A stretch of 64,000 bases of DNA from Bispira polyomma (lineage: Eukaryota): assembly GCA_965649765.1 (NCBI GenBank), contig OZ287757.1, positions 29,512,001-29,576,000 of the forward strand, in the 5' to 3' direction. The notes beneath the pieces were generated by a model. That model made no database searches. It had not been told where the DNA came from and saw only the letters and a program-made list of their open reading frames with translations. Of this stretch, positions 1 to 55,338 are shown piece by piece. Position 1 is the first letter of the stretch, and each line of letters starts with the position of its first letter. A program made the position numbers and the translations under genes.

Positions 1-705
1 TTAACCATGTAGGGTCGGACAAGATGGTGCCAATTTTGACCGATTGGAATCTATCAGACAAATACGCCGTGAACCATTTAAGTGCAGTACCGTTGATACC
101 AAACCAAGACGATAGGCACTCAAGAAGAACTTTGTGATCAATAGTATCAAATGCAGATCCAGCAGTTCTAAGGCAGTAGGCATACCTTTAGATAAAGATA
201 TATGAATGTCATTTTTGATGCAGAGTAGTGCAGTCTCTGTAGAACGACCACTTCTGTACACTGACTGATACTTATTGCATAGATTACTAACGTCGAGGTG
301 TTGTTTGATCTGTAAGGCGACCACTCGTTCAACCAACTTAGAGAAAAAGCAAAGGCCTGAGACAGGACAGTAGTTTTTCAAGTCAGCCTTTGGGAGAGAA
401 GATTTTTTTATTAAAGGAGTGACAATGGCTTTTTTAAAATCATTTGGAAAGACCAATGAGAGGTTAACAAGTTTTGTGATTGAGGGCAATAAAATGTCAA
501 TACATTCCTTAACAAGGAATGTAGGCCACGGATCTAACAAGCAAGATTTTACGGGTGATGTAAGTATAACTTTCCTGACCTCATCAACAGTTACTGTGGA
601 GAAACAGTTGAAGATGGTTGGTGGAGCTGATGGTAAAGGAGCATTTGGGGCAGCTGATGTAAAACTATCACGGATTCTGGTAATTTTATCAGTAAAAAAT
701 ATCTA
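1..705 (-). mobile_element. L2/CR1-clade LINE ORF2 fragment (pre-RT/RT), 5'-truncated, runs off the left edge
   Basis: Minus-strand reading IFFTDKITRIRD...KSCLLDPWPTFLVKECIDILLPSITKLVNLSL...KKAIVTPLIKK...KNY(C)PVS...STETALL. Clearly homologous to the LINE ORF at 22391-23266; frameshifted near LLDL. Confidence 0.9.
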
Positions 706-722
706 ACGGATTATCCGGGGTA

Positions 723-2780
723 ATGGCCATATTGCAGCGTCTCGAGTCGGCAAACGCTGACATTAACAAAAGACTAGACCAAGTAGAACTGAAAGGGTCA
801 GTTAATTCAACCCCTTTGACGTCCCCCGTAATACCAGTCAGGAACAACACTATGCTAGATTTACGTCCTCACGCAGCGTTGCCATTACCCCCGAATCTGC
901 GTCCAGGTCAGACTGCTCAGCAGCTGGGTCACTCAACTTCGTATACTGGCCACCAACATCACGACTACCAACGGGACGGCATCATTCCCAGGCTTGATGT
1001 TCTGAAATCCATCACGGACGTTAACGCCGCTGTGAACCAAAGGCTGGCTGGATATGACACCCAGCTACGACAAGACTTATCCCAAGGTAAGACTTCCTTA
1101 CGCCAAAAGTCCGGCCGTTACAACATCACAGACGTATGTGGTGTGGAACCCCAGTCACGTTGGGCTAATGAGGGATGGATAGGGGGAACAGCCCGAAAGA
1201 GGCCAAGCTTTGACGATCTTACTATGCCCCAATGGGCAGCCGGGCAACTCGCCAACATCGCCCAGGTTTCCGACCCCAATCTGATGAGGCAAATGCTGTA
1301 CCAGATGATATACTCATTCCGGGATGCAGACGCACTACCATGGACGGCAGTGAGGGCAGCATGGGGCGGGAATATGCAGCTGATCGAAGAGGGTCGACTC
1401 GACTGGTCGAACTCAATGCAATGGGCGTTGAACCACCTTAGCACTTCTCAGTTGGCACTCGTCAACCCTCAGACCACGCACCAGGTTCAGAAGGCAAAAG
1501 TTTTGTGCAAATACTATAATAATGGTTCTTGCACTAATGAAAATGATCATGGCCAATATAGGCATATTTGTAATTACTGTTACCGTAACCTAAACAAAGA
1601 AAGTGTTCACCCTGAACATAAATGTAGCAAAGTGAATGCTACTAAGAAGCCATCTGATGGCAACCAGTTAACAAAATGGGTAGCTAGTCAACGACCAAGT
1701 GGACGAACAATTGAACATGTTGTAAATTGCAATAATAGCAGTGGCATAGTTAGTAATTCTAATGTTAAAACTAATAGCTATTTTGGAAGTAAAGTAGGAA
1801 ATGAAACTAATGTCAATAACTCTAAGTATCATGTAATTGCTAGTAAAGAAGAAAAAATACAATGTGAAAGTACAGTGAACTTCTGGGAAAGTACAACTCA
1901 GAAAAGTACAGTTCATGAATATATACACCAGGTTGGGCATTATGAAGTTCATAATCCACTAATATATAGTGATATTGCTGCAATTGAATGTAACGTTTCT
2001 ACTATAAACTGTATATTTGTGTGTCCACAAGAAAATTGTCACGACCAGGTGGTATACTTGCACTTTCCAAAAAACGACAGCTGGTCAGGTTTCTGCTATG
2101 GGATAAAAAGTACCACAAGTGTTAGATATCAGTGTTTAGCCAATTTACCAGGCTTTCAGCTAATGGTTACTGATAAACAAAAGGTCAATATGTCTGTGCA
2201 AACTTGTTATCATGTATACCAGTATAATAATACTGACCGAGAACATGCTGATCTCAGGTTTCAAAACTATCACAGAGACCTTACCAGCTACCAGAAAGAT
2301 AATCATGATTATGTGCAATACATGTATAATATTATTGACATGCTTATTGAAAAAGATAATGTGATAATTAATGTTAATAAAGATAAAAAGGTTGGAAAGT
2401 CCAAGGTGAGTAGCAAACGAGCGCACACTCCGCCTGTGGATCACGTCGACGGGTTGTTCAGCCCCGACACGGGACACAGTTCTTCTTCTAAACTAAGTGA
2501 CATTAAGGACATTACAGACTCTTCCAAAAGTCTAGGCTTTATTAAACTTTCTAGAAAAACCTTCAATTTTACTGGACCTGACAGGGATTCAGTTCAGATA
2601 GATAGTATGAGTAAAATGACTGATATAGCAAACATTATTAGAAGTACAGGGGTGTCCAACTATAAGCAGGCACGCATTCCCATTAAATCTCAGTTGAACA
2701 TTAAGGCCTGGGAGGATATCACCCAGAACCACCCTGACAAAATAATTACACAATATTTAAAGTTTGGCTTTCCAACTTAA
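723..2780 (+). CDS. Gag-like protein fused in frame to the N-terminal part of Pol
   Basis: Coiled-coil N-terminus, core FDDLTMPQW...PWTAVRAAW...IEEGRLDW, and Cys/His finger CKYYNNGSC...H...HICNYC...HPEHKC. Then a ~300 aa linker and the DIRS-type RT start SQLNIKAWE...PD...YLKFGFP, broken by a frameshift. Confidence 0.8.
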   Translation: MAILQRLESANADINKRLDQVELKGSVNSTPLTSPVIPVRNNTMLDLRPHAALPLPPNLRPGQTAQQLGHSTSYTGHQHHDYQRDGIIPRLDVLKSITDVNAAVNQRLAGYDTQLRQDLSQGKTSLRQKSGRYNITDVCGVEPQSRWANEGWIGGTARKRPSFDDLTMPQWAAGQLANIAQVSDPNLMRQMLYQMIYSFRDADALPWTAVRAAWGGNMQLIEEGRLDWSNSMQWALNHLSTSQLALVNPQTTHQVQKAKVLCKYYNNGSCTNENDHGQYRHICNYCYRNLNKESVHPEHKCSKVNATKKPSDGNQLTKWVASQRPSGRTIEHVVNCNNSSGIVSNSNVKTNSYFGSKVGNETNVNNSKYHVIASKEEKIQCESTVNFWESTTQKSTVHEYIHQVGHYEVHNPLIYSDIAAIECNVSTINCIFVCPQENCHDQVVYLHFPKNDSWSGFCYGIKSTTSVRYQCLANLPGFQLMVTDKQKVNMSVQTCYHVYQYNNTDREHADLRFQNYHRDLTSYQKDNHDYVQYMYNIIDMLIEKDNVIINVNKDKKVGKSKVSSKRAHTPPVDHVDGLFSPDTGHSSSSKLSDIKDITDSSKSLGFIKLSRKTFNFTGPDRDSVQIDSMSKMTDIANIIRSTGVSNYKQARIPIKSQLNIKAWEDITQNHPDKIITQYLKFGFPT

Positions 2781-3750
2781 CTCACAAGATATTACTAACC
2801 ACCACTCTGCTTTGCAATTTCCTAAGGCTATTGACGAATATCTGGATAAAGAAAAGAGTAAAGGTGCCATGTTGGGTCCTGTGGCCAACATCCCAGATTA
2901 TCATTTCCACTGCTCACCCTTACTTACTAGGCCCAAAGATGGCAGTAAGAGACGAGTCATTCTTAACCTCTCTTATCCGGTAGGTAATTCAGTTAATGAC
3001 AATGTTAGTCGGGGAATTTATGATGACACGGAATTCTCACTAAAATTCCCTAGTATTGACAATATAACTGCAAGTATTCGGGACACTGATAACCCACTTA
3101 TGTTTAAGGTAGACGTGGCCCGCGCATTCAGAAATTTAAGAGTCGATCCGGTGGACGCTTTAAAGCTGGGTATCAAACATAACGACCAGTATTACGTTGA
3201 CGCTGCCGTGGCGTTCGGCTGGGCCCACGGCAGTGCTATCTTTCAGCGATGTTCGGTTATCATAGCAGATCGGATGAAAACACTGGGTTATAACCTTCAT
3301 TGCTACATTGACGACTATGCTTGCATATGTCGGGAATCTCAGGCAAAACAAGGTTTTGAACACCTCTGCAAATTACTGAATTACGTAGGTCTTCCAATGA
3401 ATCCAGATAAGGTTTGTGCTCCCTCTACTAAGGTCACATTCTTGGGTATTGACATTGACATTACTAAGGGAACAATCAGTATAACTAAAGAAAAAATTGC
3501 TGAAATATTTCAAACATGTGTCGATACACGAAAAATATTCTGGATATCTCGTACAAATTTTCAATCAGTGCTAGGAAAATTGCTTTACATACACAAATGT
3601 GTAAAACCTGCCCGTTGCTTTATTAATCGTCTCCTTTCAGTTTTTAGGGCTTCCCCTGGAGTCAAGCGCTTCAAAATTACTAATAACATTAAAAGTGATT
3701 TAGACCGGTTCATTAATTTCTTTTTAATTACAACAGGGTCACATATATAA
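2764..3750 (+). CDS. Reverse transcriptase (DIRS/Ngaro type), frameshifted at both ends
   Basis: Motifs NHHSA, RPKDGSKRRVILNLS, MFKVDVARAFRNL, FGWAHGSAIFQ, catalytic CYIDD, FLGIDID, QSVLGKL. Confidence 0.92.
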   Translation: MAFQLNSQDITNHHSALQFPKAIDEYLDKEKSKGAMLGPVANIPDYHFHCSPLLTRPKDGSKRRVILNLSYPVGNSVNDNVSRGIYDDTEFSLKFPSIDNITASIRDTDNPLMFKVDVARAFRNLRVDPVDALKLGIKHNDQYYVDAAVAFGWAHGSAIFQRCSVIIADRMKTLGYNLHCYIDDYACICRESQAKQGFEHLCKLLNYVGLPMNPDKVCAPSTKVTFLGIDIDITKGTISITKEKIAEIFQTCVDTRKIFWISRTNFQSVLGKLLYIHKCVKPARCFINRLLSVFRASPGVKRFKITNNIKSDLDRFINFFLITTGSHI

Positions 3751-3779
3751 ATCCTCTCCCAATTAAGGCAAACAAGGAA

Positions 3780-4163
3780 ATGTATTTAGATGCATGCCTC
3801 ACAGGTTTGGGGGGCATTTGGAATGACCAAGTTTACTATACACCTATCTATAATGTTTACCAATATGACCTTCATATTACACAATTAGAGATGGTCAATA
3901 TTGTAGTGCCTTTGAAACTTTGGGGAGAAAATTGGGCTCACCAAAGGGTGACAGTCCATTGTGACAACATGGCAGTGGTCTTGGTCGTCCAGACTGGCAA
4001 AACTAGAGATCCATACTTAGCTGCTTGTATTCGCAACATTTGGTTGCTTACTTCAACACATGACATTACTTTAAAAATAGTACACATTAAGGGTAAAAAT
4101 AATATATTGGCGGATGCTTTGTCCCGAATCTATCTAAACAATCAATTAGGACAATCCTCCTAA
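3780..4163 (+). CDS. RNase H domain of the retrotransposon Pol (continuation of RT across a frameshift)
   Basis: YLDACLTGLGG, ITQLEMVNI, VHCDNMAV and HIKGKNNILADALSR give the D-E-D-D RNase H pattern typical of DIRS elements. Confidence 0.9.
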   Translation: MYLDACLTGLGGIWNDQVYYTPIYNVYQYDLHITQLEMVNIVVPLKLWGENWAHQRVTVHCDNMAVVLVVQTGKTRDPYLAACIRNIWLLTSTHDITLKIVHIKGKNNILADALSRIYLNNQLGQSS

Positions 4164-4241
4164 ACGTAGTATGATGCAGTTACTTAATCAGTATGAACGT
4201 AAACCAGTTCCAATTAGTCACTTTAATTTAAACCTTAACAT

Positions 4242-5228
4242 ATGATTTCAGGTGCTACATCATCATCTGACACCTTAGGGAGGGCAGCCATTGACAGAAT
4301 ACATGCTGCTCTCAGACCTTCTACCACAGCAGCATACTCTAGCCAATTCAGAACATACTTGTCGTTTCTACAGTATGTCCAAATACAGGACATCGCCGTC
4401 CACTCCGTACTAGCGTTTCTAGAATATCTGACACAGAACAATATATCTCCAAAAGTGGTGAACAATTACTTAGCAGGCATAAAGTTCATGTGTTTGAAAT
4501 ATAATCTCAATCATACAGTGCTCCAACATAACTCCATTGCTCTGTTCACACGTAGCCTCACTCACACTTCTTCTTTTAGACCAGCCCCTAAAAGAGTATT
4601 TGATGTCAAACAATTACTGTCAATTTCTGAAAATTGTGAAATACTTAGTGATCCCATACTCTACAGGGCCATATTTCTGGTAGCTTTCTATGGCTTCCTG
4701 CGCATGTCGAACATTGCCCCTCACTCCAGAAGGCAATTTGACCCCTCAAGGTACTTGCTGCGACAAGATTTGATATTTGGCCCTCCTGGGCTTCACATAA
4801 TCATCAAGTGGGCCAAAAACATGCAGGACCGGTCAAAGTCGCATGTGGTCCAATTACCAAAAATAAAAATACCACTCCTCTGCCCAGTACGGGCTCTACA
4901 GAACCTTCTACAATCCAGGAAAATCTCAGATCACTCCCCCGTCTTTGTAACTGCATCTCCCCCATACCACCCCATAATGGATTCACACGTTAGGGCAGCT
5001 TTGAGAACAGTATTACAACACATAGGCATAAATCACACCATACATGGCTTTCACACGTTCCGTAGATCCGGAGCTACCCTTGCTTTTAAGAACAATATAT
5101 CACTTCAAAACATCATTGCACACGGGCTGTGGCAGAGCTCTGCTGTATGGACATACCTACAACCAACTTCCCAAGCTGCCTCAATAATTCCTTCCACATT
5201 TGCAGAAATTATACCCTCTTCATTTTGA
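4242..5228 (+). CDS. Tyrosine recombinase (YR) of the Ngaro-like element
   Basis: Intact 328 aa ORF. N-terminal RPSTTAAY helical domain; catalytic residues in FYGFLRMSN (R), WAKN (K), GFHTFRRSGAT (HxxR) and HGLWQSSAVWTY (W, Y). Confidence 0.93.
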   Translation: MISGATSSSDTLGRAAIDRIHAALRPSTTAAYSSQFRTYLSFLQYVQIQDIAVHSVLAFLEYLTQNNISPKVVNNYLAGIKFMCLKYNLNHTVLQHNSIALFTRSLTHTSSFRPAPKRVFDVKQLLSISENCEILSDPILYRAIFLVAFYGFLRMSNIAPHSRRQFDPSRYLLRQDLIFGPPGLHIIIKWAKNMQDRSKSHVVQLPKIKIPLLCPVRALQNLLQSRKISDHSPVFVTASPPYHPIMDSHVRAALRTVLQHIGINHTIHGFHTFRRSGATLAFKNNISLQNIIAHGLWQSSAVWTYLQPTSQAASIIPSTFAEIIPSSF

Positions 5229-6157
5229 CTTTGGGTTTGGGCTTATTAAAAATTTTACACATATTTTAAAATTTTAAATATATCTCATAAACCTGTACAT
5301 AGATACTAACATGTACAGAAAATAAATCTCCAAACCTTAAAATTCTTGTTGTTATTTTATGACTTTACTTACCATCACACACTAACGGAACTGAATGACA
5401 ATAACCAATTTTAAAATTAAAAAGAAACAACAAACAAAATCAATTAAATCAAACTTGCGAGCTCCAGGAATTAGCTTCCTGTATTCTCACTGGGTAATAC
5501 CGGAAATTGGAGTCAATACCAGTGCCATGGCTCATCAAAACAATTTTCATATGCCTTGTTTGTCAAGCTTTGAATGCGTGGGATGAAATTATTGCTGCTT
5601 TAGTTTATTCCGTAGTTATAATGAAAAAATAATTAGTACTTTTCCTTCAAATGCTTGGTAACAAAAAGCTGGATTGTTGCCATGACGACAGATTCAAATC
5701 TGGTATTCAGTGCAAAAACATTCCCCACCGAAGATAGGTTCAGTACATTTCTTTAAAATGCCCAGAAATGAAAATCAAGATCATAGCAACAGGGCCAGAG
5801 TTGGGAATTAGACCAAAACCAATCCCAAGAAAGCTATTACTAAGACCAGTGAAGTCCGGAAATAAAAATACCTGTCATAATGGTATCCAATTAGGATAAG
5901 AAATTTATGCAAAGAAAGCTTTTTAATTTGATGTTGCCACAAGATTCCCTTTGATGTCTGGAAACAAAACGATGTCTGACCAAAAATAATATATCCCCAG
6001 ATAGACATAAAAATAAATGACAGATGTAAATGCACATAACAGAAAATTAGGACCAGTAACTGTACATTTTATTAAAGGTCACTACAATTTTATATATTCT
6101 TCAGATTTATATCTGAATATTTAATATTTATGCTACCAATATGTAAGCAATATTTGC

Positions 6158-21366: not shown

Positions 21367-24300
21367 ATTGTAATTGTAATTAGACTTTTATTGCGCTTAA
21401 TCTCCCCTTAACAAAGCGGACTCTAAGGCGCAACAGCACAAAAGACAGTTATCCAATTTCCAAAATCAAGGGACAGAAAAGGGTCAGCACCATAGAGTGC
21501 GCCGGGGGATGATCGAGACTAGGGTGGATATGCTTTAGTGTACAAGTGGGTTTTAAGCTGCTTTCTACAACAGGCTAGTGAGGGGGAAGCACATCAGGAA
21601 GAGCATTCCAAACAATGGGAGCATCAAAAGCAAAGCTGTGACCAAACTGTTTAACTGACTTTTGAGTAGATAGGTGGAACTTCAGAACAACAAGGAAATT
21701 ACTACTACTCTGACTACGTCTGGTATTGTTGGAACTACTATAAGTGGAAAGATATGGGGAAAATACTTTGGAAACCCAGTGTGGAGAAACTTATAAACAA
21801 GTGTAGCTGTCTTAAACACTGAACGCTGTTCAACAGGGAGCCAATGCAATTTCTTAAGAACAGGAGTTATACTGGTGTATCGACTGGTGTTTGACACAAT
21901 TCTAGCTGCACTATTTTGAATGCATTGTAATTTACGTAAATTAAACTTTGAGAGACTTCTGAAAAGCAAATTGCAGTAATCTAGTCTACTACTGACAAAA
22001 GCATTGGCCACAAGTATAGAAGCATCATAAGTGACAAACCGTCTGACACGTCTAAAATCCCAGAGTTGCACAAAGCTTTTACAGACACTCTGAACGTGTT
22101 TAGAGAAAGAAAAGTCAGGGTCAAACCATACACCCAGGTTATTGACAGAATCAGCAGGACTGAAAGGGCTACCCAGGATGTCAACTGGAAACAATGGTTT
22201 CAACTTATCCCTCTGTTGTTTGAGCCAAAGATTATGAACTCAGTCTTGTCGGGATTAAGTTTGAGTTTACCAGTTGACATCCACTCTTTCACATCGTCAA
22301 GGCACCTGTTCAACTGTTCAAAGGCAGTAGATGTGTTCTTATGGGATAGGTGCACATAATTTTTGGGTATCATCTGCATAAAAACGAAACTTAATCCCTG
22401 TCTATTTGCCAATAACCAATCAGAGAGGGGCAGAGTATAATGAGAACAACAGAGGGCCCAAAATCTTGAGGAACACCAAACAAGAGTTTACAAAGATCGG
22501 ACAAAGTAGAGCCAATTTTTATCGACTGATAACGATCAGTTAAGTAGGAAGTGAACCATTTAAAAACAGAGCCCCTAACTCCAAACCAAGTCTGAAGACA
22601 ACTGAGAGGCGTAGAATGATCAATGGTGTCAAAGGCAGCAGAGAGGTCGAGCAATACCAGGGCAGTTGGTTCCCCTCTTGACAAAGATAGGTGAACTTCA
22701 TTTTTTATAGACAGTAGAGCTGTCTCAGTCGAATGACCTGTTTTATACGCAAACTGGTATGGGTTATCTAAGTCGTGGACAAAGAGGTGATCTAACAGTT
22801 GCCTAGCAACCACACGTTCAGCCAGTTTTGATATGAAAGTAAGACTAGATACAGGGCGATAATTCTTTAGGTCATCAACTGGAAGAGAAGCCTTCTTAAT
22901 AAGAGGAGTAACCACAGCTGTTTTAAAACCATCAGGTACATGTCCCTCAGTAAGTGAGCAGTTTACAAGCTTTGTAATGGATGGTAGTAATATATCACTA
23001 CATTCTTTAATAAGAGATGTTGGCCATGGATTCAACATGCAGGATTTTGTAGGCGATTTACTTATTATTTTACTAACATTGTTTTCAGAGACTCTGGTAA
23101 AGGCAGTAATTTCTGGGGGATCAGAAAGAGGATGAACATCAATTTTAGTTTCAGAAACAACAAAAGTATCTCTAATTCTATTAATTTTGTCAGAAAAAAA
23201 GGAAGCAAACTTATCAGCTAGTGATTTATCAGAATCATGGGACGGGAGTGCCACATTGGTATCCATATTAAGGGTCTTGCGCAGTTCGTGCCATAGCTTC
23301 CTGGAGTTGTGACTGTTGTCAGAGATAAGTTTGCTATAGTACTCCGACTTATCCTCGTTAACAAGTACATTGCACCGAGCAATCTGGCAATGAAGTGGAC
23401 TTCTATTTAATTGATTCTTGGCCCTTCGCCAAGTTCTTTCATATTAGCGCGAGATTTTGCCCGTTGGTATGAATCAGAGAGCCAATGAAATGAATCTTTC
23501 TTTGACATTCTAGATACAAGTGGTGCATGCTTATCTAGTACATCACCCAAGTCATGTATGTATTGTTCATAAAGTTTGGCTACAGAATTGGCAGGTGACT
23601 TAATAAAGGAAGTATTCTTGAGATCAGTACGGAGGTCCTACATGTTAATACGTTGGTATCTCCTATAATGCACTGTATTAGGAATATGAGCCACCTGTGG
23701 GGGAGAAACAATTGAACATTTGACTAATGCATGATCCAATATGAAATCGCAGACTTTGACATCCACAATAGCATCCTGATCACAAAGAGATAAAATAAGA
23801 TCCAGAATGTGACCATGCAGATGGGTAGGTTGTCTAACTGACTGTTTTAGATCGCACAAATCAAGAAAGGTCATAAATTTATCATCGTCACCAACTGGTG
23901 CATCAACATGTATGTTAAAGTCACCACAGATATGATATGAACTGTTAATGGAAGACTACAAACCAACAAAGACATGAATTCTTCTAAATAATTACAGGTA
24001 CATGATCCTGGGGGACGATAGACACAGGCAAGCAACAGTGAGTGGCCATGAAGCCCAATTGATACCACCATATTTTCAAAGGACTGATAGACAGGAGAAT
24101 CTATTTTATGTGGTTTGTAGGAGGATTTGATGAAGAAACCAACACCGCCACTAATACATGAGGGACGACGCGTTTGAGGAAACACAAATCAGGAGGAGTA
24201 ACAGACTGTAGACAGCTATCCGTATCAGATAGACGGACATAGGTCTCTGTAACACAGAGGAAGTCGAGGTCATGCGATGTCACAATATGGACCCTTGTTC

Positions 24301-36370: not shown

Positions 36371-39300
36371 ATGGAGGGTGAAAACACAATACCAGTGATT
36401 GATTTTAACAACTGTTCACTGGATATTGATGCAGGGAATTTAAATGAGGAGGTACTAAAACAAACAGGAGAGGCCATTTGTAAAGCCTTTCACGAAGTTG
36501 GATTTATCTATTTGAAAAACCATGGGATTCAGCAGAAAAAGGTACACTGGCCAGTGTTATCTATTGTGAATGATACTGTATATTTTATCTAATGCTGATG
36601 TTTATTTGTACTGAAATTGTATCCTAAATTGCTAGACACTTACAAAACTGAAACAAATATCAAGGAATCAAAATATCATGGCACGAAAGTGTATATATAT
36701 AATGTTGTGAACTTTAATCAAAACATGGTGAATACTGTTAATTAGCTATTAATTATGAAATGTTCTGTGTTAGTGTGTTTTATATAACATCTATCATTGT
36801 TTACCCAATAGATGTACTGTACCATTCTGTATGATATTAATATATAAAAATAATGTTCAAACAAAATTGGTGGGTGTATGTTGAAAAGTTAGCAGTAGAC
36901 CCGCTGAAGGCCTGTGATTTGCAGAGCAGAACACCTTGACCAACTAGCTAAACTGTTCTGATTTCATCCATCATTGAACTACTGCACATAATGGTGTTCT
37001 ATAAGCAATATTTTGGGTCCAGCACTTGTTTTGTATCAAGCGAATAGAAGTTAAGTTTTTGTATCAGGCCGCTGGAAACTTAGTTTTAATTTATTTTGGG
37101 TTAAACATCGCTTTCAACAAACCTTGTAACATATCGAGACATGCATTTCACTGGTGGATGAAATCAGAACATGGAAGTTTGTCTACAAACCACTGGCCTT
37201 CAGTAAGTCAACTATCCACCAAGAAGAATGCAATATAAAATTAAGTGCCTTACTGTTCCTCATCCTTTACAGATAGATGAGACATTTCAATTAGCCAAGA
37301 GATTCATTGAATTGCCTGAGGATGTCAAACACAAATATAAAAGAAATGCTGATGGTTATGGATGGATAGCCATGTCGCGTGAAAGGTAATAGTTCCAATG
37401 GCAGTGTGGTAATAAGGTTGGTATGTTACAGCCTGTTGTCAGATAAAATCCATGAGCACACAAAATTAATCAAATTAATTTTAAGGCATTATGTGATATT
37501 TTGTCATAGTGTGCAAAGCTTCGTTGTAGCTTGAATAAAGAAAGACCACATGATCTGAAGGAATCATTCAGCTATCTACCGCAATATGCACATGTAAGTA
37601 CTCAATCCCTTCGAGGTTTCATTAATGTATATCAGTACATGTATGCCATACTATTCTATTAAGGAGTCAAAGTTCTACTGGATCATTTTAGTTATTGAGA
37701 ATCATAATCCTAGGACAGTCGTCAGGAAACAGTTGAATATGATTTACATTTTACTATCTGGAAAAGTGAGGTGGATGAATTAGTTCTGATATTTAGAAGA
37801 AGGGAAATCCGCAAAACTGGTGTCGTGTGAAAGAATGAATGACAGAACGATTTATGACTTATACATCTCATGTTATTGAATTTAGGGACCAGGGTTACTC
37901 AAACAAGTGTGGGGCCGCGGTGGCCTAGTGGTTAGCAAGCATTGCGCTTCACAATCACTGGTCTCTCACCTCTGGGCGGCGTGAGTTTGAATCCCGTCGA
38001 TGCCTATGTGGGAAAGGTGGTAGTTCCTTACTGTGGGCCGCTGGTTTCTGTGCAGAACCTTGACCGACTGTATGCAGTGTTTCCTCCAGCGTTTCCAACT
38101 ACCCGTCCCAATATAACCTACTAAAAGGTACTAGAGTGGACGTTAAATATCTAAATTCAAATTCAAATACTCAAACAAGTGTAGGTAACAGGTATATGCA
38201 TAAATAACATGTTTAGACTGATCACACAAGGTTTTTGGTATTCATGGATGCTATAAAAGCTAACTTAACCTATTATATCACACTTATGTAGGAATTCCCC
38301 GATCCAAACAAAGATGTGAATGGTTTTGGTAACATCATGGAAGAGATGTTTCACAAGTGTTACAAACTCTCCATGAGAATTTTGGAAGCAATTGGAAAAG
38401 GATTAAAGTTGGAGGTAAGTCTCGTAGTTGACATTGACACTAAAGGTTTAGTATTAAACAAGGGTATTGATATTAAAGTTGAAGTAATACAAATATGTGT
38501 AATAAAACTTCAAAAAAATTAAGCTGTCATCTCAATGAACTACTGTTTGACAAGTCTTCACATAATACTATATATTACAGGATCCATATTACTTCAGTGA
38601 AGCACATCAACCATATATAAGGAAGAGCTTGACATCTTTGCGGATGTTGTATTATCCCCCAATTAAGGATGTTACAAGTAAGGTTATCTGTTATTCTATA
38701 CCGAATTATCACTGTGCAGCTTACTAAAAGTGCATATAGTAATTCTATACTTTATTGTATTTCATAAGAGAACTTCATAGTACATGCAAAATTTCATGGT
38801 ATATTTAACAAAACCTATTGACTCTGAGTCTTTGGGATATCACATTAGTATTATATGTCTGTCGCCTATGCTGTTGTGGGGTCAAATCTCAGCCCTGATG
38901 TGTATGTAAGAAAGTATGTGGTAGATTTGCTAAACACCGGTGGTTCGTATAGCGCAAAACATTGAACAATTACCCTGTTCTGATTGCCTCCACTAGTGTG
39001 CCACAAGACAAGTTATACGTGAAACTCAAAGTAAACTAAACTGATTTTCACTGAAATAGGAATGAAATATAAAACAATATTATTGTTCTAATCCATACAA
39101 GTGTCTTTAGGTCGTTTTAAAGCAGTCACTAGTTGGTGATCTTTAGTCACAGTAAATATGTCTGAAATCTACAAATGATAATGTGTGTCTGTCAATTTGT
39201 GGGTCAATTTCTATTAAAGCAATAGAAGCAAAACAAATCCGCTGTGGAGAACACTCAGACTGGGGTTCTATAACATTACTGTTTCAAGATCAAACTGGAG

Positions 39301-41472
39301 GCTTAGAGGTAATAAGAACTTATTATATTGTATTAAGGGGATCAAACTGGGAATCTTTTATCGCGATAACAACTCTGTAGCAACTAGATCACAAGCTATG
39401 AATAATCTAATCTTATCAAACTTTTATAGCACTTATCTCTGTGTACATGAGACAAAAAATAATTTTGACGATATAGCATATAGCAAATTTTTAATAATTC
39501 ACATGGTTATTACCCTAAGAAGCCAATTAGGCATGTTGCAGTCATTTACATGCTTGTCCATTACCCTTATGGCCTGGTCTCATTGATACATACCTGTGGG
39601 CGCATATGTTTTTGGTGTGGTGTTGACAGAAAGAAAGGGATTGTAGTTCATGTTCTTAAATACCTACCAACTGGCCACTAGCCTACCAGAAAATCTACAG
39701 ACAGATCAACCACTTTCATGTAAAGATGCTCATTTGTCTAGCTCCACAAATAGCTGCACGGGGCCGCGGTGGCCTAGTGGTTAGCAAGCAGTGAGCTTCA
39801 CATTCACTGGTCTCTCACCTCTGGGCGGCGTGAGTTCGAATGCCGTCATGCCTATGTGGGAAAGATGGTAGTTCCTTACTGTGGGCCGCTGGTTTCAGTG
39901 CAGAGCCTTGATCAACTATATGCAGTGTTTCCTCCAGCGTTTCCAACTACCCGTCCCAATATAACCTAAACAGGTACTAGAGTGGACATTAAATATCAAA
40001 AAAAAAAAAAAAATAGCCACACAGGCATGTGTAAATGAGACTGGGCTATGATTTATGTTCAACCATTTTAATGAATACTTAATTTTGCTATTTTCTTTGT
40101 TAACATCATCAACACACTATTAAATATTATCAATATACATTCAGTTTTAGATGTGATATGAAGCAAATTGTCATGCCATCTTACACTGAACAAAATATTT
40201 ATTCGTTTCAAATGTAGGTTATATCCAAAGGAAAGTTTCAGCAGGCCACACCAATACCAGGCACGGTCCTGGTTAACATTGGGGACTTGATGCAAAGATG
40301 GAGTGGGGATTATTTTAAATCAACTGTAGGTATTAAGGCTGTATATTTGGCTGGCTCTACCTGGGATGATTTTTATAATGTTGTTTTTTTGTAATATACA
40401 TGGTATTGTTCCACCCAATGTCAAATATAGTCGCAATTATTAGTTGTGTCCAGTTTTCAAAATTTTAACAACTGTGCACTACATGTGAAATTTTTTTGAG
40501 CTTGGTTATTCTATGGCACATAAATAGTAATCAGGGGTGAAATAATTAAAGTTGAGAACTTTACACTTTAAGTACTGCAGGTTTATTTACCGACAGCAAT
40601 TTGAATTCTATATTTTTTGGGTCACCTATTTTTAAGATTTCCCCAAAACTGTTAAAAAGATGGGTGATTTGACTATATATAATATATTTAAATTTATTTT
40701 CTCTATAAGTACATAGGATGCCATTGTCAATTAGTACACTCAATCTGTAATACAACAATGAACCAATTTATAGTCTCCTATATATCAATATTTGCTGATT
40801 TGGGCTTTGTTCATTACACAGTGTTATACTAGAAGGTTCGATCATTTAAATGACTTTATATTTTTAAAAATAGCAGTTACAATATGCCTTGATTATTAGA
40901 CATCTTCCGTCATAGAGGAATTGGCTTGGAGACAAGCGGTAACATAAAATGTTGTGTAATCGCAAAAAGTTCTCACCAGCGTCTTCCGGATGTCTCCTCA
41001 ATTTCTTAAGTGTCTCTATCTTGTCTTCTTATTGTCTCCAGTCCAGTAATTGCTTCCACTCGATTATGATGGCATGGAATTTCTAAATGTTCAAATTCAC
41101 AGCCACAATGAACCTTTGAAGAGACAAGGAGACACTCACCTATTTCTTAACTTTGTCTTTGAAGTTTCCACCCATGTCGTCTTGCATGTAAAGTAGTCAT
41201 ATCATTCCAAAATATCATTGCTTTACTTTTTACTGGTAAACGATTAAATACTCTTACATTACATATTTTGTTTCTGTACACAGGTACATCGAGTGGTCTT
41301 ACCTGAAGCCCTAGCTGCATATCCAGAGCGGAAATCTTTGGCTTTTTTTGCTATACCTGACGATGACTGCGAAATTGTCAGTTTAAAGCCACAGGAAGGT
41401 AGTGATCCAACTCCGCCAATCAAAAGCAGAGATTACATGGATATGAAGATGACAGCTGCTATGCGTTATTGA
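36371..41472 (+). CDS. 2OG-Fe(II) dioxygenase B, isopenicillin N synthase-like family; 8 coding exons, 317 aa
   Basis: Exons 36371-36541, 37273-37385, 37530-37593, 38292-38414, 38581-38677, 39220-39308, 40218-40325, 41284-41472. GT-AG, same intron phases as gene A (954 nt, open). HSD...VHRV and RKS motifs intact. Confidence 0.93.
37911..38167 (+). mobile_element. tRNA-derived SINE, copy 2
   Basis: Near-identical to copy 1; 15-bp TSD tactcaaacaagtgt (37896-37910 / 38168-38182). Confidence 0.95.
39760..40010 (+). mobile_element. tRNA-derived SINE, copy 3 (poly-A tail)
   Basis: Same body, pure A tail, imperfect TSD aaatagctgcac / aaatagccacac. The empty site is visible in paralog C near 58460. 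Confidence 0.93.
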
Positions 41473-41799
41473 CTCTCCTATGAAGTCTTTAGCATGTGCC
41501 TCCCTTTTAATGCCGGTATGACATTGATTTGAAGCTTGTAGTGAAAGGCAGAAATTGGGGTTCTTAATTATGCACAGAAATGAATTAAATGCATTCAGTA
41601 CATCTCATATATGTGTGACCTTAAACATAAGTTTGTCTTTGCATATGAGTAAAGAAAACTGATGTTGGGGATATTAGTTTATTCTATGTTATTCTCTAAT
41701 ATTTATATACCGACATGGACCACCTCAAAGTGGTAAGGTTGCATTTACGTTAGTGAATTGACTTCATGGTCAGATCTTAGCTTAAGCGTCCTCAATGTA

Positions 41800-44942: not shown

Positions 44943-47497
44943 ATGCCACGTGTTAAAGAATATAGTTGTTCCAAATGTAGGTGAAAGCATGAAAGGCCAG
45001 TTGTGAAACATTGTGTACATTTCAATGGGCCGGAAGAGGGATCCGCTGCCATTGACAGCCCTAGGGTTACAGGTGCCCGCTATCTAGTTCTTGAGGGCTC
45101 GGTTTCAGAACAAATACTATTGCAAATGCAATCTATGTCCCAGATGATGGAAAAGATGGATCAGCGGGTGCTTCTTACGGAGGCTGCGATGGCTGGAAAC
45201 CTCACCAAAAACCAGGTGGGTAGTAGTTCTCTTTCTAAAAGTTATGTTTCCAAAACCGGTGATGATAATGTGGTAACAGAAAGTGTGATCCCTAGCGTTG
45301 ATTTTGAGAAAAATTCAGCCATTCAGAGCCAAGTAGAGCAAAGGCTCTACCTAAGGTAAGAGAGGGGGAGGGTCCGATATATTGGTAAAAAAAATCATGT
45401 TCTATCCGGCAGTATCAAAAGTTATGACGATTTGTCCTTAAACCAATGGGTGTGCGGATTCACCAAAATTATTCAAGATGACAAATAACAGGCAGTCTGA
45501 GAAATAATTCTCAAGTACACAGCGAATCTGATGGAAGACTCCCACGATTTTTCCTTGGAGGCGGCCAAGGCATGTCATGCTGTCGTTTTATCAACAATGG
45601 AAATGGATATGTTACAATGGACGGATGTGGACAAAATAGACCGATTAAGGCAGGGTCCATGCCCAAAGGCACATACAAAATAATGGCAGTTCTCCGGGCA
45701 TAGGTGCACGGGTGGTAGTAAAACCAACATCAATGCCCAGCAGAATTGTGCTAATTGTAAGTTCTTTTAAGAAGAAACTTGTAAGTTTCCAAGTAGCCAC
45801 AAAACGAGCAATATATATTTCAAACAGATTTGTGAATCATGCGGAAGGACACACAAAAACTTGCAGTAAAAACAACTAAACAAAAACAAAAAAAACTAAG
45901 TGGCCACTGCATCAATGCAGTGGGCGATAAAAGTGTGGAAGAATGAATTTTCAATCGAACTGTTTTTAGAAAGGGTTTTGATTTATTTCATCTACTAAAC
46001 AAAATGGTGATTCAAAAAATGTGTAAATATAATAGGGCTACAACACCACGGTATAGCTACAGCTAAATTGTGCAGAAAGCACGTAGTAGTGTGACTTTTA
46101 GGTAAAAAAATGTATTAAATGTTGTAAATTTAAACACAAGTGTGTTACTAATTCAGGAATGCCCAAACAAAAACCAGTCAGTACGAATGTGGGGCTGAGT
46201 TGAAAACAACTGTGGCCAGTTGTAGTAAGGGATTTATATCCACTGATAAATATACTTTTGAGCTCAAGCAGGAACAAAATCAACACAAGTTGTTAGAGAA
46301 AGCAAAAACGGATAAAACAATTTTCATGATCAGAATGCAGTACAATATAGCTTTACACCTTTGTCCACAATAAGTTGTAAAATCTGGGATAACAGTGCGG
46401 AAAATCTGGGTGAAAATATATTAGAAATGCATCAAATACTATGTTGTGATGGCCGACATAATTATGATGGCCTCCAAATACCAGTAGATTTACAACTGAA
46501 TGCTGATAGGTGGGAACATTATCTCGACAAATATTGGGATTGACAGTTGCCGTTTAACTTAGGTACAGGTTTCCACTTGATGTGAACCCCTATGTTCGGA
46601 CAATAACAATTCGGCTACAAAATTTCCTGATCACGTTGATTTCTAGTTGAGAGGGGAATGCTGCCATGGAGCAATGCTCGGGCAGTTTAAAAATCTTCCA
46701 ATTAAAAATCTTGATTTTTTCACTAATGATGACACAAAATAAATGAGCTCAAGTAACAAAGCTGGTCATCGTTGATATTAGCCAAAAGACAAATCAGTTA
46801 ATGCGGTTGCTTCACCCACCGCATACATGGGCACTGAATTTTTACTGTCTTATTCTTCAATTGACAACCTAACTAATAAAATTCGGAAACTGGAAAAAGG
46901 TTGTGAAATCTTCAAAAGTGACGTAAGCAGGGCATTCTGCCACATACCCATTGACCCAGGGGCCATACATTTGCTTGACCACAAATGGGGTGATTATTTT
47001 ATAAATAAATCCCTGCCGTTCGAATATCAGAATGACTCCACTATTTGTCAACATCTTTTGGACGCAGTTCGGTTCATAATGTACTCTGAGGGTCATGACG
47101 TCCACAATTATATAGATTATTTTTATGTGCTTCGTTACCAAGCCAAATTAATAAGACTTATGAGAGACTGCAAGATCTTTTACCCGAATTGGGCCTAACA
47201 ATAAATGAAAAGAAATTAGTGGCTCCCAGTACGGAGGTTGTTTGCCTTGGGATAAGCATTAACACAATTGAATGTACCATCTTAATTCCGGATGAAAAAC
47301 TAAAAGAAATCCAGGATAGGTGTACTGTATGGAACTACAAAAATTGTTGCAATGAAAGAGAGTTACAGTCTCTTCTGGGTTCGCTGTTGTATGTTGCCAA
47401 CTTCATTAATTGTACCAGATTATATCTGAATAGAAAGCTTCAGCTATTAAGAGATAACCACAGCAAAAATAAATTTCCTATTACTCTATGCAATATT
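44943..47497 (+). mobile_element. Ngaro-like retrotransposon copy 2 (decayed gag + RT), cut by a MULE
   Basis: N-terminal CSKC..H..C finger; gag core YDDLSLNQWVCGF...LMEDSHDFSLEAAKACHA. RT remnants QLNADRWEHYL, FKSDVSRAF, HNYID, CLGISIN, LQSLLGSLLY. Many stops. Confidence 0.85.
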
Positions 47498-49480
47498 CGG
47501 TGCGCGGACAAAATGCCGGTGGACAAAATGCCGGTCAAAATTGCAAGGGTGGACAAAATGCCGGCCGGTTTTGGGCCGGGTGGACAAAATGCCGGTCTTT
47601 GGATTGTGAGCATTTTATTAACATTGAAAGGTTACAACCTTAAAAACGTTTGATTTTCAAGCACATAAAAAACTTTATTAACATTAAAAATATTTTCAAG
47701 CACTACATAGTCTTATCAACATTAAAAGCCATCACCATGACAAGAATATATAAATCATTTTAGTCGAATAGAATGCCCTATTCCATTCAAAAAGTCTTTG
47801 ATACAAATTGTTTTGTTGGCTCTCTGAACACATAAGTTGAACAGTTTTTGTTGGAGGTCTTTTGTACACTTCCGTTGCCTTTTTTGGGGAGGTTGTCCAC
47901 GAGCTGCCTGAAGTAACTGACTTATGACCATAGCAGCATCATCCCTCAAGTGGTCAATGAGCCTCCAGATGGATGGGTGGTCATGTCCAACTGTCTGGCG
48001 GAATGAGTTGTTCCACCCCTCGCAGTAGTTGTTTGTTCGGTCTGCTCCTTGTACGGTGATCTGATGAACATTCCACACATCCAATGGGTACTGAGGTGGT
48101 ATCTTACGCAGGCGAATACAAGGCAGATTATCACCGGTGACTGGTCTTTGAACACGCCGAAAACTTCCACTGACATAGGTGTGGTCAAAGTAGTCCAGTA
48201 ATTCATCACCGGGTGTGTAACATATTTCACGTAGGTACTGCATCCCCTCAGAGATTTCCTCTACTGGCAGGAATGCAAGCCCGTCCACCATCCCACAGAA
48301 GTGCTTGAACTCTCCATCTAGTTTGTAGAGATCTTGTAGGCCAAGTCCTTGAATTTTCCTCCACGTGCTTTGGGTCAGATGATAGAAACAACCTTTAATA
48401 GTGATGTGAGAACCCAAAACTTGCTGAAAGGCATTGATTACAGATCGCTCAAAGTCCATATGAATAATTTCTGGATCTGGGCTGAAACCTAATGACTCGC
48501 ATCTATCCACAATAGCCTGAAGCATCTCAGTGTAGAGTTCTTGGGATTTGCCTGACAACAATGCATAGCAACATGTCACTGCTGACTCTCCAAGTTTTGC
48601 CCGAATGACGTATAGCTGTTGGAATATTAAAGGGGCCACAGAAAAAGTTCCATCGACAAACCAAGTGTCTGCCAGAGCTAGGTGTTTGAGTCCCTCATCA
48701 GTGGCAAACACAATCACCCTCTGTCTGTTTCCGGAACCGCTGTCGTGGACCAGGAAAGTCTTTGGATGAGGTCCTGATGTTTGGGTCCATTCACCTTCAA
48801 CAGTCAGTTCTTCTAGAGTCTTTGGGTCCTTTGGGAGGTTACCGCGTTGAATTCGTCTGATGGATCTCTTGAGACTATCAGGCTTGCCAATCTCAGCACG
48901 CACACCATTACTTGCTTGTGAGAGTGTTGAGCTAAGGATGGCATGTGGCTTTACTTTGGATACCTGAGAGGAACTTTTTAACTGGTTTCTCAACTTAGCA
49001 ACTTCAACTGTGGTAGTGCTGGTGTCATGGCAATGTGGATGTTTAGGCACTGGATTTTCCATATCTGAATTAGTCACCAGTGAACCATTACACAAAAAAG
49101 CATTTTTTTGAGAGCATGACCACTGTATGAAATTTTTAGTCTTTGATTTCTTAGTGTACATGAAACCCTCAAAACATAATTTTGACCCTCCTTTATTTGT
49201 TTTAATTAACTCCATAATCTGTCAGCTCTGGTTTCACTTGATGAATGATTATTGGTAAGAAAAACTGAACCTTTTATAGACATAGTCACTGCCAAGGAGG
49301 TTGCAATTGATAAATGAGCAATTGAGCAATTGAGCAATTGAGAAATGTAATTGAAGATAAAATCACAATATCACAAAGGATTATTATTGGCAAAGACAGG
49401 AATGATTCAAAGGGACAAGTTTTCAAAGAAATAGTTCAAAACCAGAGGATTGCAGTTACCCCTAAATAACTCTTTATTCC
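47498..49480 (-). mobile_element. Mutator-like (MULE) DNA transposon, one terminus retained
   Basis: The terminus at 47498 carries four ggacaaaatgccgg subterminal repeats (47506, 47521, 47551, 47582) and the element holds an intact transposase. No matching inverted end was found on the other side. Confidence 0.88.
47755..49215 (-). CDS. FLYWCH-MULE DDE transposase, intact 486 aa
   Basis: N-terminal FLYWCH finger (TNKGGSKLCFEGFMY...WSC...C...HCH); catalytic WFVDGTF, IHMDFE, CFYH (CxxH) and RTNNYCEGWN. Confidence 0.95.
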   Translation of the reverse strand: MELIKTNKGGSKLCFEGFMYTKKSKTKNFIQWSCSQKNAFLCNGSLVTNSDMENPVPKHPHCHDTSTTTVEVAKLRNQLKSSSQVSKVKPHAILSSTLSQASNGVRAEIGKPDSLKRSIRRIQRGNLPKDPKTLEELTVEGEWTQTSGPHPKTFLVHDSGSGNRQRVIVFATDEGLKHLALADTWFVDGTFSVAPLIFQQLYVIRAKLGESAVTCCYALLSGKSQELYTEMLQAIVDRCESLGFSPDPEIIHMDFERSVINAFQQVLGSHITIKGCFYHLTQSTWRKIQGLGLQDLYKLDGEFKHFCGMVDGLAFLPVEEISEGMQYLREICYTPGDELLDYFDHTYVSGSFRRVQRPVTGDNLPCIRLRKIPPQYPLDVWNVHQITVQGADRTNNYCEGWNNSFRQTVGHDHPSIWRLIDHLRDDAAMVISQLLQAARGQPPQKRQRKCTKDLQQKLFNLCVQRANKTICIKDFLNGIGHSIRLK

Positions 49481-51261: not shown

Positions 51262-52750
51262 GATGCGTACAAGAACAAAAGTCCCCTGAGATTAAGGAAG
51301 CAATGCTTGGGTATTTAGCCAACTTTATGGACGACGCCCACAACTTTTTGTGGGAAGCCGCAAAAGCTTCTCATGCTATCTTGTTGACTAATATGGAGTT
51401 GGATTGTCTTAAGTGGACCAATGTAGACAAGGTTGATCGGATTCGCCGGGCTCATGCCCAACATCACAAATCTGGTTCCAGTAGTAAGGCAAAGGTTTAG
51501 GTTAAAGCTCAAGGTGTTACATGTCAATTTTTTCAGGAGGGCACCTGCAAATGCCACCCACCGAACCTCAGGGCAACTTTTTAAACATTATTGTGAGACT
51601 TGTGTTGGCAATCATCAAACAAAATTATGTTCACAAAGGGTTAAAAAAACTTAAGGCCTACTGCAGTAATCCAGTGGGCATGTCAGTCTGTAGTAGAATT
51701 GTATACAATTTAAGGATTTTAAAGTATTGTCTAACGTGTGTTTATAAAAGTATTCTTGTTCTAACCAAATTGTACAAAGATTTTTTGTCAAAAATAGGAG
51801 TTGTAAGTCTACCCAAATGAGTGTTGTTTTTGACAAAAGACCACTTAAAAGTAAAATTGATCCTATGCATTGTTCCAGTAAGGCTAACCGGTTGAATAAC
51901 CACAGCCATACTCCTGTAAACAGGTGTGAACGGGGTGTCACAGTAAGGTCAATAAAGATGTCCAAGGGGCTTGACCCCGCCACAAAAGACCTTAGTGTTA
52001 ACAAACCATTGTTCAAAAAGAAAGAGGTTGACACGGGGGGGGTGCCAACAATGACTTCCAATTAACACTCTTGAATAGGTTTGGTGTATTAGACACACAT
52101 TGTGGGGAGAGAGAGAACAGTCCTAACTTAATTGATTGTATGAAGGCCCCTCCTGTGTGGTTGTGTAAAGTGAAAAGAAAACAAATGAAAATGTCAAAAA
52201 CAAAATGTCAATTCCTAGAAACGACTTGAGAAATAACACTACTGACTTGTCGGATGATAAATATGCTCTGGATATGTGCAGGTCACTTGACAAGCATAAA
52301 AGACTAAATGATGCAAAGGGGTGTGATACTTTTAGATTATGGGACATCCAAAATAGTGTGAAATTTGGGTTTATTCCACTCTCGTCGTGGGGGCAAAAAA
52401 TCTCAGACAATTCCTAGGAACAAAATTCTATGAATGTGTTTGTACTCCATAAGCATAGAGAGAGGATGGTCATCGAAACTACAGGGGTCTGCAGGTCCCT
52501 GTCGTTTCTCAGCTGAAAGCTTCAGTATGGGCCAATTACTTGAGAAACTACTGAGACTAGGAACTCTCTTTGCTTATAAAATTTGAGTTTCCCCTTGATT
52601 TTACTGAACAACACAAATTCAAGTCGGAACTAGAAAATCACACTTCTGCCAATCAGTACCCAGAACATGTTACTCACTACTTAAAAAAATAGTGTGAATT
52701 TAGGGCCATGTATGGTTCCTTTGATGTGCCACCAATTTTAAATTCACACT
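51262..52750 (+). mobile_element. Ngaro-like retrotransposon copy 3 (gag C-half to RT start), decayed
   Basis: MLGYLANFMDDAHNFLWEAAKASHA...DRIRRAHAQ, finger CQFFQEGTC...HYCETC, KFGFIPLS, and RT start SQLKASVWANYL...FPLDF...NHTSA...AMYGSF. Confidence 0.85.
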
Positions 52751-53332
52751 GAAACAAACAGGAGAAGCCATTTGTAAAGCATTTTACAAAGTCGGATTGG
52801 TTTATTTGAAAAACCATAGGATTTAGCAGAAACAGGTACACTAGCCAATGATATCTATTGTAAATGATATACTGTATATTATATCTGATACTAATGTGTA
52901 TTTGTACTAAAATTAGCCCCTAGAGACAGTTATAAAACTAAAACAAATCATAAGTACTCAAAATACCATGACCTACTCTAGTAATGTATATTCCCTGTTG
53001 TAAATTTTAATAAAAACAAGGTGAAAACTGTTAATTAGCAATTTAATAAATTAAGTTATATACTATTTTGTTTTTTCTAACATCTGTTTTTTTGTTAACC
53101 AAAAGGTACACTGCACTATGCTGAACAAGATAAATAAATAAAAATAAATTTAAAAAGCCATTGTGGGTTATCTGTGTGTGTGTTTAAAAGTTAGCAGCAG
53201 CCTTGCTGAAGGTATGTGGTTTACAGAATACCTTCACCAACTGCATACTATGTTATGATGCCATCCACCAGTAAACTGCACATTGTGATATGATACAATG
53301 TTAATGTCTCAAAGTAAATGTAAGGAAGCAGA

Positions 53333-53619
53333 GAGTCCGAACTTGTGTATGACCAAAGAAACAAATGAAAAGCTTTACCTCTGCTTCTGATGGTTACTAG
53401 TCCACCTATACAAAGTCTCTGCCAGCACATATCACTATCATAACGCTAGGACATATCACTATCACGTTTCTTTGATATTGAATAGGAGTCTGAACTTGTA
53501 TATGACCAAAGAAACAAATGAAAAGCTTTACCTCTGCTTTTGATGGTTACTAGTCCACCTGTACAAAGTCTCTGCCAGCACATATCACTATCATAACACC
53601 AGGACATATCACTATCACG
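53333..53619. repeat. Two-copy direct tandem repeat, 153-bp period
   Basis: gagtc(c/t)gaacttgt...ggacatatcactatcacg at 53333-53466 and 53486-53619. Confidence 0.95.
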
Positions 53620-55208
53620 GGCTTAATCCAAAACAAATTGCAATATAAATTATTGCTTTATATATTTCTATATGATCAACATACAAAAGTCTGGAATAAT
53701 AGAAATATGGGAAAAGCCTAAATTTTGACAAATTCAAAACAAAATTGGCAAAACCATGAAAAGTACTGCAATCATTGAATATGGTCTTGTAAGGTATTTA
53801 AATGTAAGTCACTTTAATCTGGATCATTTACTGGGAAAATGATTCAATTTTAGACAGTTTTGCAACTTCATTTAAATCAAATTGAAGTTTTTTCCTTGTA
53901 AAATTTTGAATATTGTTAAAACAATGTTACAGATGAACATGCCATTTTTTTAATAATTAAATCAAAAGACTTAATAGAAAATTTGGAGAAAGCTTCAGGT
54001 TTACCTTCATTTTTGGTCTTAAATTATTGCCTGATCTGAAAGTTTACTAAAATTGTCCTTGATGACATCAAATATTTGCTCTTCAGAGTTTTTACAAATT
54101 ACACCATTACATTCACCACAAACAGTTCCACATATGAATCCATGTTTTTGTTTTTTATAGCTGCATCTCTTAGTAGTGTCTCTGCTTCTGTCTTTACATA
54201 ATTTTTTATAAGATTTGCAGATGTCTTAATAAGTCTATTATTTTTAAATGACCTTATCACGATTCAAGAGAAAGTTTATAATGTGTTTTTTAAATTATTT
54301 TTGATGGTTGGGACAGTCTTGAGAACCTACCTATCTTTATGGTTTCAATGGGAAATCTTATTAGACATGCATGGGACAAACAATCTACAAGGTCCACTCA
54401 ACTGGAGTAATCCTTATTTAAACACTACCCAACACTTGCGATGTGATGCATGGTGAACTTAACCCACGTGTTTCTTAAACGACCACCCCTGCTTTCTACA
54501 ATAGCTTGTCTGACTTGTGCAATGCTTGATTACTGCAAACACCATTGATTCTGCCCTTCGTGATCTTGATTGCATCCTAGGTCATTTTAACTCCTTCTAG
54601 CCTCCAAATCGCAAAAGTGGGACCTGGCCATTAGCAGGCAGTTCACTGGTGATGAAAGTCAGAACAGGGTTAGTTGGTTAAGATTTAACAGTTTATTTAA
54701 TTTATTTTCTGCACTTAAAGTGGCCCAAAAACACATCACCTAGTGAACTAAAGTATTTATATAGTTTGGTTTTTATTATTGGCTTTGGTTGTTGGTATGA
54801 ATTTACTATCTACCTCATGTATAAACATTTCTCTCATTTTAAAAACTTTTTTACAAGTTTTTTAGTACTATTAGCCTATCTGATATGTCATATTATCTCT
54901 TCACAACAGATATATAATATATATGTATATGTATTTATAATGTTTCAATTGTGTGACCTCTTACACACTAACAAAAAAAAACAACACATATACACATACA
55001 CACAAATCACTTCTTTAAGTCAGATACTTTAGATGTCTTTACATATGTGTGTATTCTCTACTTGTGAAAAAGAAACAGATGTATTTAATAGGATATAAAC
55101 ATATATAAACCATCAACTGTACATATCCATGCAGATTGTATGTATAAGGAAGAGTTGGTAGTGTGTGATTCTATTCAATTTATGTCATTTTGTACACTCA
55201 CCAAGGAG

Positions 55209-55338
55209 NNNNNNNNNNNNNNNNNNNNNNNNNNNNNNNNNNNNNNNNNNNNNNNNNNNNNNNNNNNNNNNNNNNNNNNNNNNNNNNNNNNNNNNNNNNN
55301 NNNNNNNNNNNNNNNNNNNNNNNNNNNNNNNNNNNNNN
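55209..55338. other. Assembly gap (130 N)
   Basis: Run of N. Confidence 1.

Follow-up and report, generated by a model that had tools for sequence, protein, structure and literature searches.

A predicted splice from gag to the tyrosine recombinase gene in Ngaro-type retrotransposons of Bispira polyomma

We analyzed a Ngaro-type tyrosine recombinase (YR) retrotransposon lying in a 64,000-nucleotide (nt) window of the Bispira polyomma genome (contig OZ287757.1 of assembly GCA_965649765.1, positions 29,512,001 to 29,576,000). Window positions are counted from its first letter, and features are on the plus strand unless stated otherwise. The recombinase of this family is probably made from a spliced mRNA, as a fusion of the N-terminal part of Gag to YR. 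This proposal, made in the initial annotation of the window, is supported because the donor, the acceptor, their phase, and conservation at the level of single bases recur in two distant clades of the element (clade A, to which the window copy belongs, and clade B), and because no start codon for YR is conserved.

By its gene plan, repeats and domains, the element in the window is a decayed copy of a Ngaro-type YR retrotransposon. A gag-like open reading frame, reverse transcriptase (RT) with RNase H, and then YR follow one another on one strand, the plan which, together with split repeats, is given for Ngaro in passages of PMC9210276, PMC4157794, and PMC6681497. Pfam matches within the element are RT (PF00078), an RNase H-like domain (PF13456), and a YR consisting of a SAM-like N domain and the catalytic domain PF00589. 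Gag has no Pfam match and was assigned from its position and from Cys/His motifs at its C-terminus. No methyltransferase was found after RNase H, all three of the open pol frames searched (3/3) giving RVT_1 and RVT_3 only in Pfam. Full-length sibling copies carry split direct repeats, of about 220 and 160 bp, in the order A1 ... B1 A2 ... B2. Two other classes were considered and rejected. DIRS1-like elements have inverted terminal repeats, an internal complementary region and a methyltransferase, whereas the terminal repeats here are direct and there is no methyltransferase; PAT-like elements, as defined in a passage of PMC4157794, combine split direct repeats with the methyltransferase that is missing here. 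Two copies (L050 and L062) have a B repeat upstream of the 5' end and an unusually long A-region repeat, as in tandem or circle-junction insertions.

The window copy has an intact YR frame, no gag stop, and a pol broken in several places, with frame breaks near 2770, 3720-3750, and 4150-4160 in the RT and RNase H-like region (2761-4163). Its gag start and repeat A1 are upstream of the window (L063:4349-4876), beyond an insertion of about 1.8 kb; a single B repeat remains (5237-5396), and there is no A2. Because the insertion cuts off the gag start, this copy could not make the full fusion itself, and given its decay, the question therefore concerns the family and not the single copy. The insertion (L063:4877-6000 and window 1-700), which has a weak minus-strand RT match, splits the first gag exon, and an RT fragment related to its own is found at 21685-23443.

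What survives of predicted exon 1 is its 3' part (701-1086), coding for a coiled-coil-like helix, a linker and a second helix of the Gag N-terminal region. It ends in the donor CAAG|GTAAGA (1083-1092), with the last exon base at 1086, one base into a codon of the gag frame (696+3k) and so in phase 1. The acceptor TTTCAG|GT begins predicted exon 2 at 4252, on the second base of a YR codon and likewise in phase 1; exon 2 (4252-5228) holds the intact YR frame with both of its domains. The 3165 nt between them (1087-4251) would form an intron containing the gag core, the N-terminal region of pol, RT, and RNase H. Both sites and phases had been described in the initial annotation and were confirmed, as was the presence of an ATG at 4242-4244. 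The donor is the sole occurrence of AG|GTAAG between 600 and 5600, and it ranks second among 235 GT sites by match to the textbook 5' consensus. The sequence TTNYAG occurs 11 times between the donor and the end of YR in the window copy, and 9-25 times in 15 lineage representatives; because this motif alone is common, a site match in a single copy is weak. One copy alone could be due to chance, but through its conservation across copies the predicted pair is beyond chance.

Clade A was sampled as 122 genome loci plus the window copy, these being the best-scoring of many more candidates and biased toward a well-preserved YR. Single linkage at 80% gave 16 lineages, after one mis-clustered copy had been merged by hand, and the median YR DNA identity between clusters was 0.62. 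A phase-1 G|GTA donor is present in 95 of the 123 copies; 19 have no alignable gag and nine have no donor. The commonest form of the donor is G|GTAAG in all 15 lineages with data (15/15). The Gly codon at the donor is GGT in every lineage with data, and it is the only single-codon column among 105 invariant four-fold columns, over which the mean share of the top codon is 0.51. On a tree built from one natural copy per lineage (16 representatives), this codon underwent 0 changes, alone among 126 four-fold sites with a mean of 5.97, and the Lys codon after it also underwent 0, one of only two such codons among 180 two-fold sites. The predicted intron has a median length of 3295 nt in 91 copies. 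The linker in exon 1 is expanded in one lineage (L141, L142, and L146), placing 321-331 codons before the donor, which is still in phase.

A free position at -4 is typical of 3' splice sites. At the clade A acceptor, T at -6 and -5, AG at -2 and -1, and GT at +1 and +2 are fixed in 16/16 lineages, while -3 is C or T and -4 is free. The acceptor is in the YR phase in 115 of the 122 copies with a YR start, being off phase in three, absent from three, and unanchored in one. The RNase H stop (4243-4245 in the window copy) ends 6 nt ahead of exon 2 in clade A, and the TTNYAG stretch (TTTCAG at 4246-4251) is non-coding for RNase H. Read in the YR frame, the codon whose last base is the A of the acceptor AG encodes S, V, T, A, or P. 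Since the site follows the RNase H stop and this codon is variable, the constraint is on bases and not on residues. Taken with the donor, we find a 5' consensus, a YAG 3' site, and base-level conservation, as in spliceosomal GT-AG introns. Branch points of GT-AG introns lie 18-40 nt upstream of the AG. The one proposed in the initial annotation, ttaac at 4235-4239, exists but is poorly conserved (A at -15 in 9/16 lineages and at -14 in 10/16). What is conserved across clade A instead is another branch-point-like sequence, TTTAAYYT, at -30 to -23 (4222-4229), and because it also encodes the last RNase H codons its constraint is not attributable to splicing alone.

A second, related copy in the window, copy 2, had been reported to have a donor at the equivalent place after its VEQRL motif. 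The donor is there (AAG|GTAAGA, 45353-45361, with the junction at 45355|45356) and is homologous, but its phase does not match: after a local deletion it lies about 28 nt nearer VEQRL than in relatives, hence off phase. RNase H and YR are missing from this copy. The 40 loci related to copy 2, in 13 lineages, make up clade B, and their identity to the window copy of clade A is about 25% in gag, 41% in RT, and 32% in YR. Despite this distance, a phase-1 G|GTA stands 14-17 codons past the VEQRL-type motif in 30 of the 40 (one off, three with none, six unanchored). The split codon encodes G, D, A, V, or E, with the first G alone fixed, and the donor codons of the two clades align in 19/19 gag proteins. 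On the acceptor side, 32/40 loci have an AG at a constant distance of 65 nt from a conserved downstream Pro codon, while seven lack it and one is unanchored, against a background of 0.051, and the spacers ahead of it are pyrimidine-rich and non-coding. Among YR homologues from other assemblies, 21 of the 22 that reach the acceptor site have [S/V/P]-[G/D] there, which is what an in-phase AG would force. A search of metagenome and viral contigs found no relatives.

We also asked whether YR has a start codon of its own. The initial annotation had raised the conservation of the ATG at 4242 as a check, and this ATG, which overlaps the RNase H stop, was rejected as the start of YR in the family: it occurs in 12 of 118 copies, namely the window copy, ten copies of one lineage, and one single-copy lineage. 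The first Met most often encountered lies 44-79 codons beyond the acceptor in 12 of 16 clade A lineages. The SAM-like domain spans residues 17-84 of the YR frame, so the late Mets fall inside or past it, and starting at them would cut the domain.

Under the splice reading, the host spliceosome would excise an intron of 3.1-3.5 kb, containing the gag core, RT, and RNase H, from a fraction of the genomic transcripts. Once spliced, the RNA would be translated from the gag AUG, joining about 170-210 Gag residues to about 325 YR residues. The Gag part of the fusion would comprise a basic tail or zinc finger, a coiled-coil-like helix, and a second helix. A low-confidence structural model of Gag (mean pLDDT 48.6) has helices at residues 64-91 and 166-188, with the donor at codon 190, before the core; the model gave no fold match. 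The shared N-terminal part may enable co-assembly of YR with Gag or bring YR to the nucleus, although this is a guess with somewhat less than an even chance of being right.

Unspliced RNA would yield Gag and, by a different route in each clade, Gag-Pol. In clade A, 37 of 38 copies (from 11 lineages) have a gag frame that ends in TAG-G and a pol that continues in that frame, suggesting that Pol is produced by a readthrough-like event at UAG and not by frameshifting. The corresponding position in the window copy is 1677-1682, where no stop is present. Past TAG-G, pol is open in the gag frame for up to 895-947 codons in clade A (for example, in L103, L133, and L149). No structure downstream of the UAG was seen by eye to be shared among single-sequence folds, and we found no description of an in-frame UAG between gag and pol for Ngaro in the literature. 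The UAG|G at the end of gag was also considered as an acceptor for pol and rejected, having no pyrimidine tract and phase 0 as against the phase-1 donor. In 11 of the 15 clade B copies examined (L156-L192; about 45890-45930 in the window), gag ends in A AAA AAC, a stop, and a hairpin-like inverted repeat, which by its sequence is a -1 frameshift signal. Two modes of recoding thus coexist with one splice plan across the clades. The outline of three proteins from one transcript, as first proposed, holds, but the frameshift signal invoked for it does not belong to the clade of the window copy.

Three other explanations for the expression of YR have to be set against splicing. The published suggestion is a frameshift in the RNase H/YR overlap, which Poulter and Butler (2015) thought probable, according to a quotation in PMC13003380; a -1 shift at the end of RT/RNase H would give a Gag-Pol-YR polyprotein. 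In clade A the YR is indeed in the -1 frame and overlaps the end of RNase H, but 61 of 118 copies overlap by only 4 nt. Within the overlap, 14 of the 20 copies of one lineage and one single-copy lineage have a strict slippery heptamer, making 15 of 117 copies, while five have a relaxed heptamer and 97 none. The clade B YR is in frame -1 in 16, 0 in nine, and +1 in seven of 32 copies, often behind a stop. Frameshifting would also leave both the frozen donor codons and the fixed AG unexplained. We regard this explanation as very improbable, and a -1 frameshift from pol into YR appears largely refuted for both clades. YR could instead have its own start, by stop-start reinitiation at the RNase H stop, with AUG or a near-cognate codon, or from an internal promoter and a nearby Met, with the splice-like motifs as by-products. 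Reinitiation would suit clade A: of 118 copies, 95 carry ATA, ATG, GTG, or CTG as the codon that overlaps the stop, and every one of the 16 lineages has ATT directly after it. Those overlapping codons, however, are dictated by the stop itself, with TTA, CTA, or GTA in three lineages, and the geometry fits clade A alone, since most clade B stops are found 22-56 nt upstream and not in a constant frame. Several clade B lineages do have an early Met, and the gene calls for 10 of the 22 homologues from other assemblies place a start just before the site, but the clade B Met ranges in position from +4 to +31. The synonymous freeze at the gag donor has no explanation here either, and an independent start seems unlikely.

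It could also be that the two splice sites are genuine without being spliced to one another, or that the spliced RNA serves regulation (for example, lowering the amount of genomic RNA) while YR comes mainly from elsewhere. A second strong donor-like site, AAG|GTGAGT at 2403-2411, with its junction at 2405|2406 in the N-terminal region of pol and phase 0 there, recurs at a shared position in about 8 of 16 clade A lineages, and TTNYAG sites are common within the element. The second donor is, however, mostly in phase 0, is absent from several lineages, and has no shared place in clade B; four-fold sites other than that of the main donor are never frozen; and the main pair agrees in phase in both clades. 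We consider this explanation improbable as well.

Several observations weigh against the reading that YR is spliced onto Gag. We infer the pairing of the predicted donor and acceptor from phase, and all of the DNA evidence is from one genome. This reading does not account for the second, partly conserved donor at 2405|2406. Counted by lineage majority, the clade B AG is present in 9 of 13 lineages, compared with 7 and 6 of 13 for two coding offsets; the lineages missing it are mainly those with the most decayed copies. An ATG at -3 in two clade A lineages and a Met at +9 in two, like the Met at +4 to +16 in four clade B lineages, make an independent YR start possible there. The junction of 1086 to 4252 was absent among the best 15 of 40 joints in three contig sets from one study, which are uninformative on this point, their cover being even over all 30 bins and DNA-like. 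A profile search found no Gag(N)-YR fusion among 141 homologues of exon 1, 55 of which have the gag core; the sole YR-like match (E 0.005) sits in a plain gag. Searching with the exon-1 region for fusion proteins likewise gave no match, and no fusion occurs in the best 120 of 234 YR homologues, all of which are at most 348 aa long. Most entries in these protein libraries appear to come from gene calling that ignores introns. Finally, intron-less copies were absent from 91+30 copies with both sites and from 30 exon-1 loci.

Spliced subgenomic mRNAs are used for retroviral env, foamy virus pol, and the spliced gag of copia. The predicted arrangement resembles those of retroviruses and long terminal repeat elements in that a 3' open reading frame is reached by excising a large intron and that spliced and unspliced RNA are kept in balance. 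It differs from env-type splicing in that the donor is deep within gag and in frame, so that the product would carry half of Gag as a fusion, and in that the 3' reading frame codes for the integration enzyme. Retroviral integrase is packaged by way of the Gag-Pol polyprotein, and the gammaretroviruses use UAG readthrough to make it. Here, too, the integration enzyme would carry a Gag part, and in clade A pol follows UAG-G in frame; the Gag part of YR, however, would come by splicing and separately from RT. Likeness to the Ngaro elements of Goodwin and Poulter (2004), which belong to the order DIRS, as reported in passages of PMC4157794, PMC9210276, PMC6681497, and PMC3783388, extends from the single orientation of gag, RT/RNase H, and YR, the split repeats, and the lack of a methyltransferase to the YR start, in the -1 frame with a slight overlap of the end of RNase H, as in clade A here. 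The difference is in YR expression, for which the review of Poulter and Butler (2015) supposes frameshifting, while our evidence favors a splice that joins YR to gag. The lists of open reading frames, in which no search aimed at it was made, showed no SGNH hydrolase frame.

We found no description in the literature of spliced YR expression in Ngaro or DIRS elements, although Repbase may hold such notes. How YR is expressed and packaged in YR retrotransposons has so far been left at supposition, namely frameshifting. Should the splice prove real, YR would be a protein of about 500-535 residues that includes the N-terminal half of Gag, compared with the annotated reading frame of 330 residues, and the biochemistry of Ngaro integration would need the fusion form. 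The host would also gain a point of control over Ngaro elements, as splicing provides for other retroelements, and its genes could be disturbed by the strong donors and acceptors of thousands of candidate loci; our first look at the genome gave 13,703 YR candidates. For animal Ngaro elements in general, we suggest only tentatively, and judge it somewhat less likely than not, that an ancient alternative splice of conserved position grafts an oligomerizing N-terminal half of Gag onto YR, that the integration enzyme is thereby loaded into Gag particles independently of RT, and that the splice is older than the split between the UAG-readthrough and -1-frameshift lineages.

Several other features of the window were observed. 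Where the RNase H and YR of copy 2 would sit, there is a 488-aa frame on the minus strand (47758-49221) with FLYWCH and MULE transposase domains. A long degenerate duplication, with 68-83% identity in pieces, relates about 36450-41590 to 52750-61700 and may represent two genes in tandem. Copies of a 250-bp repeat are found at 31892, 37905, 39760, and 42609.

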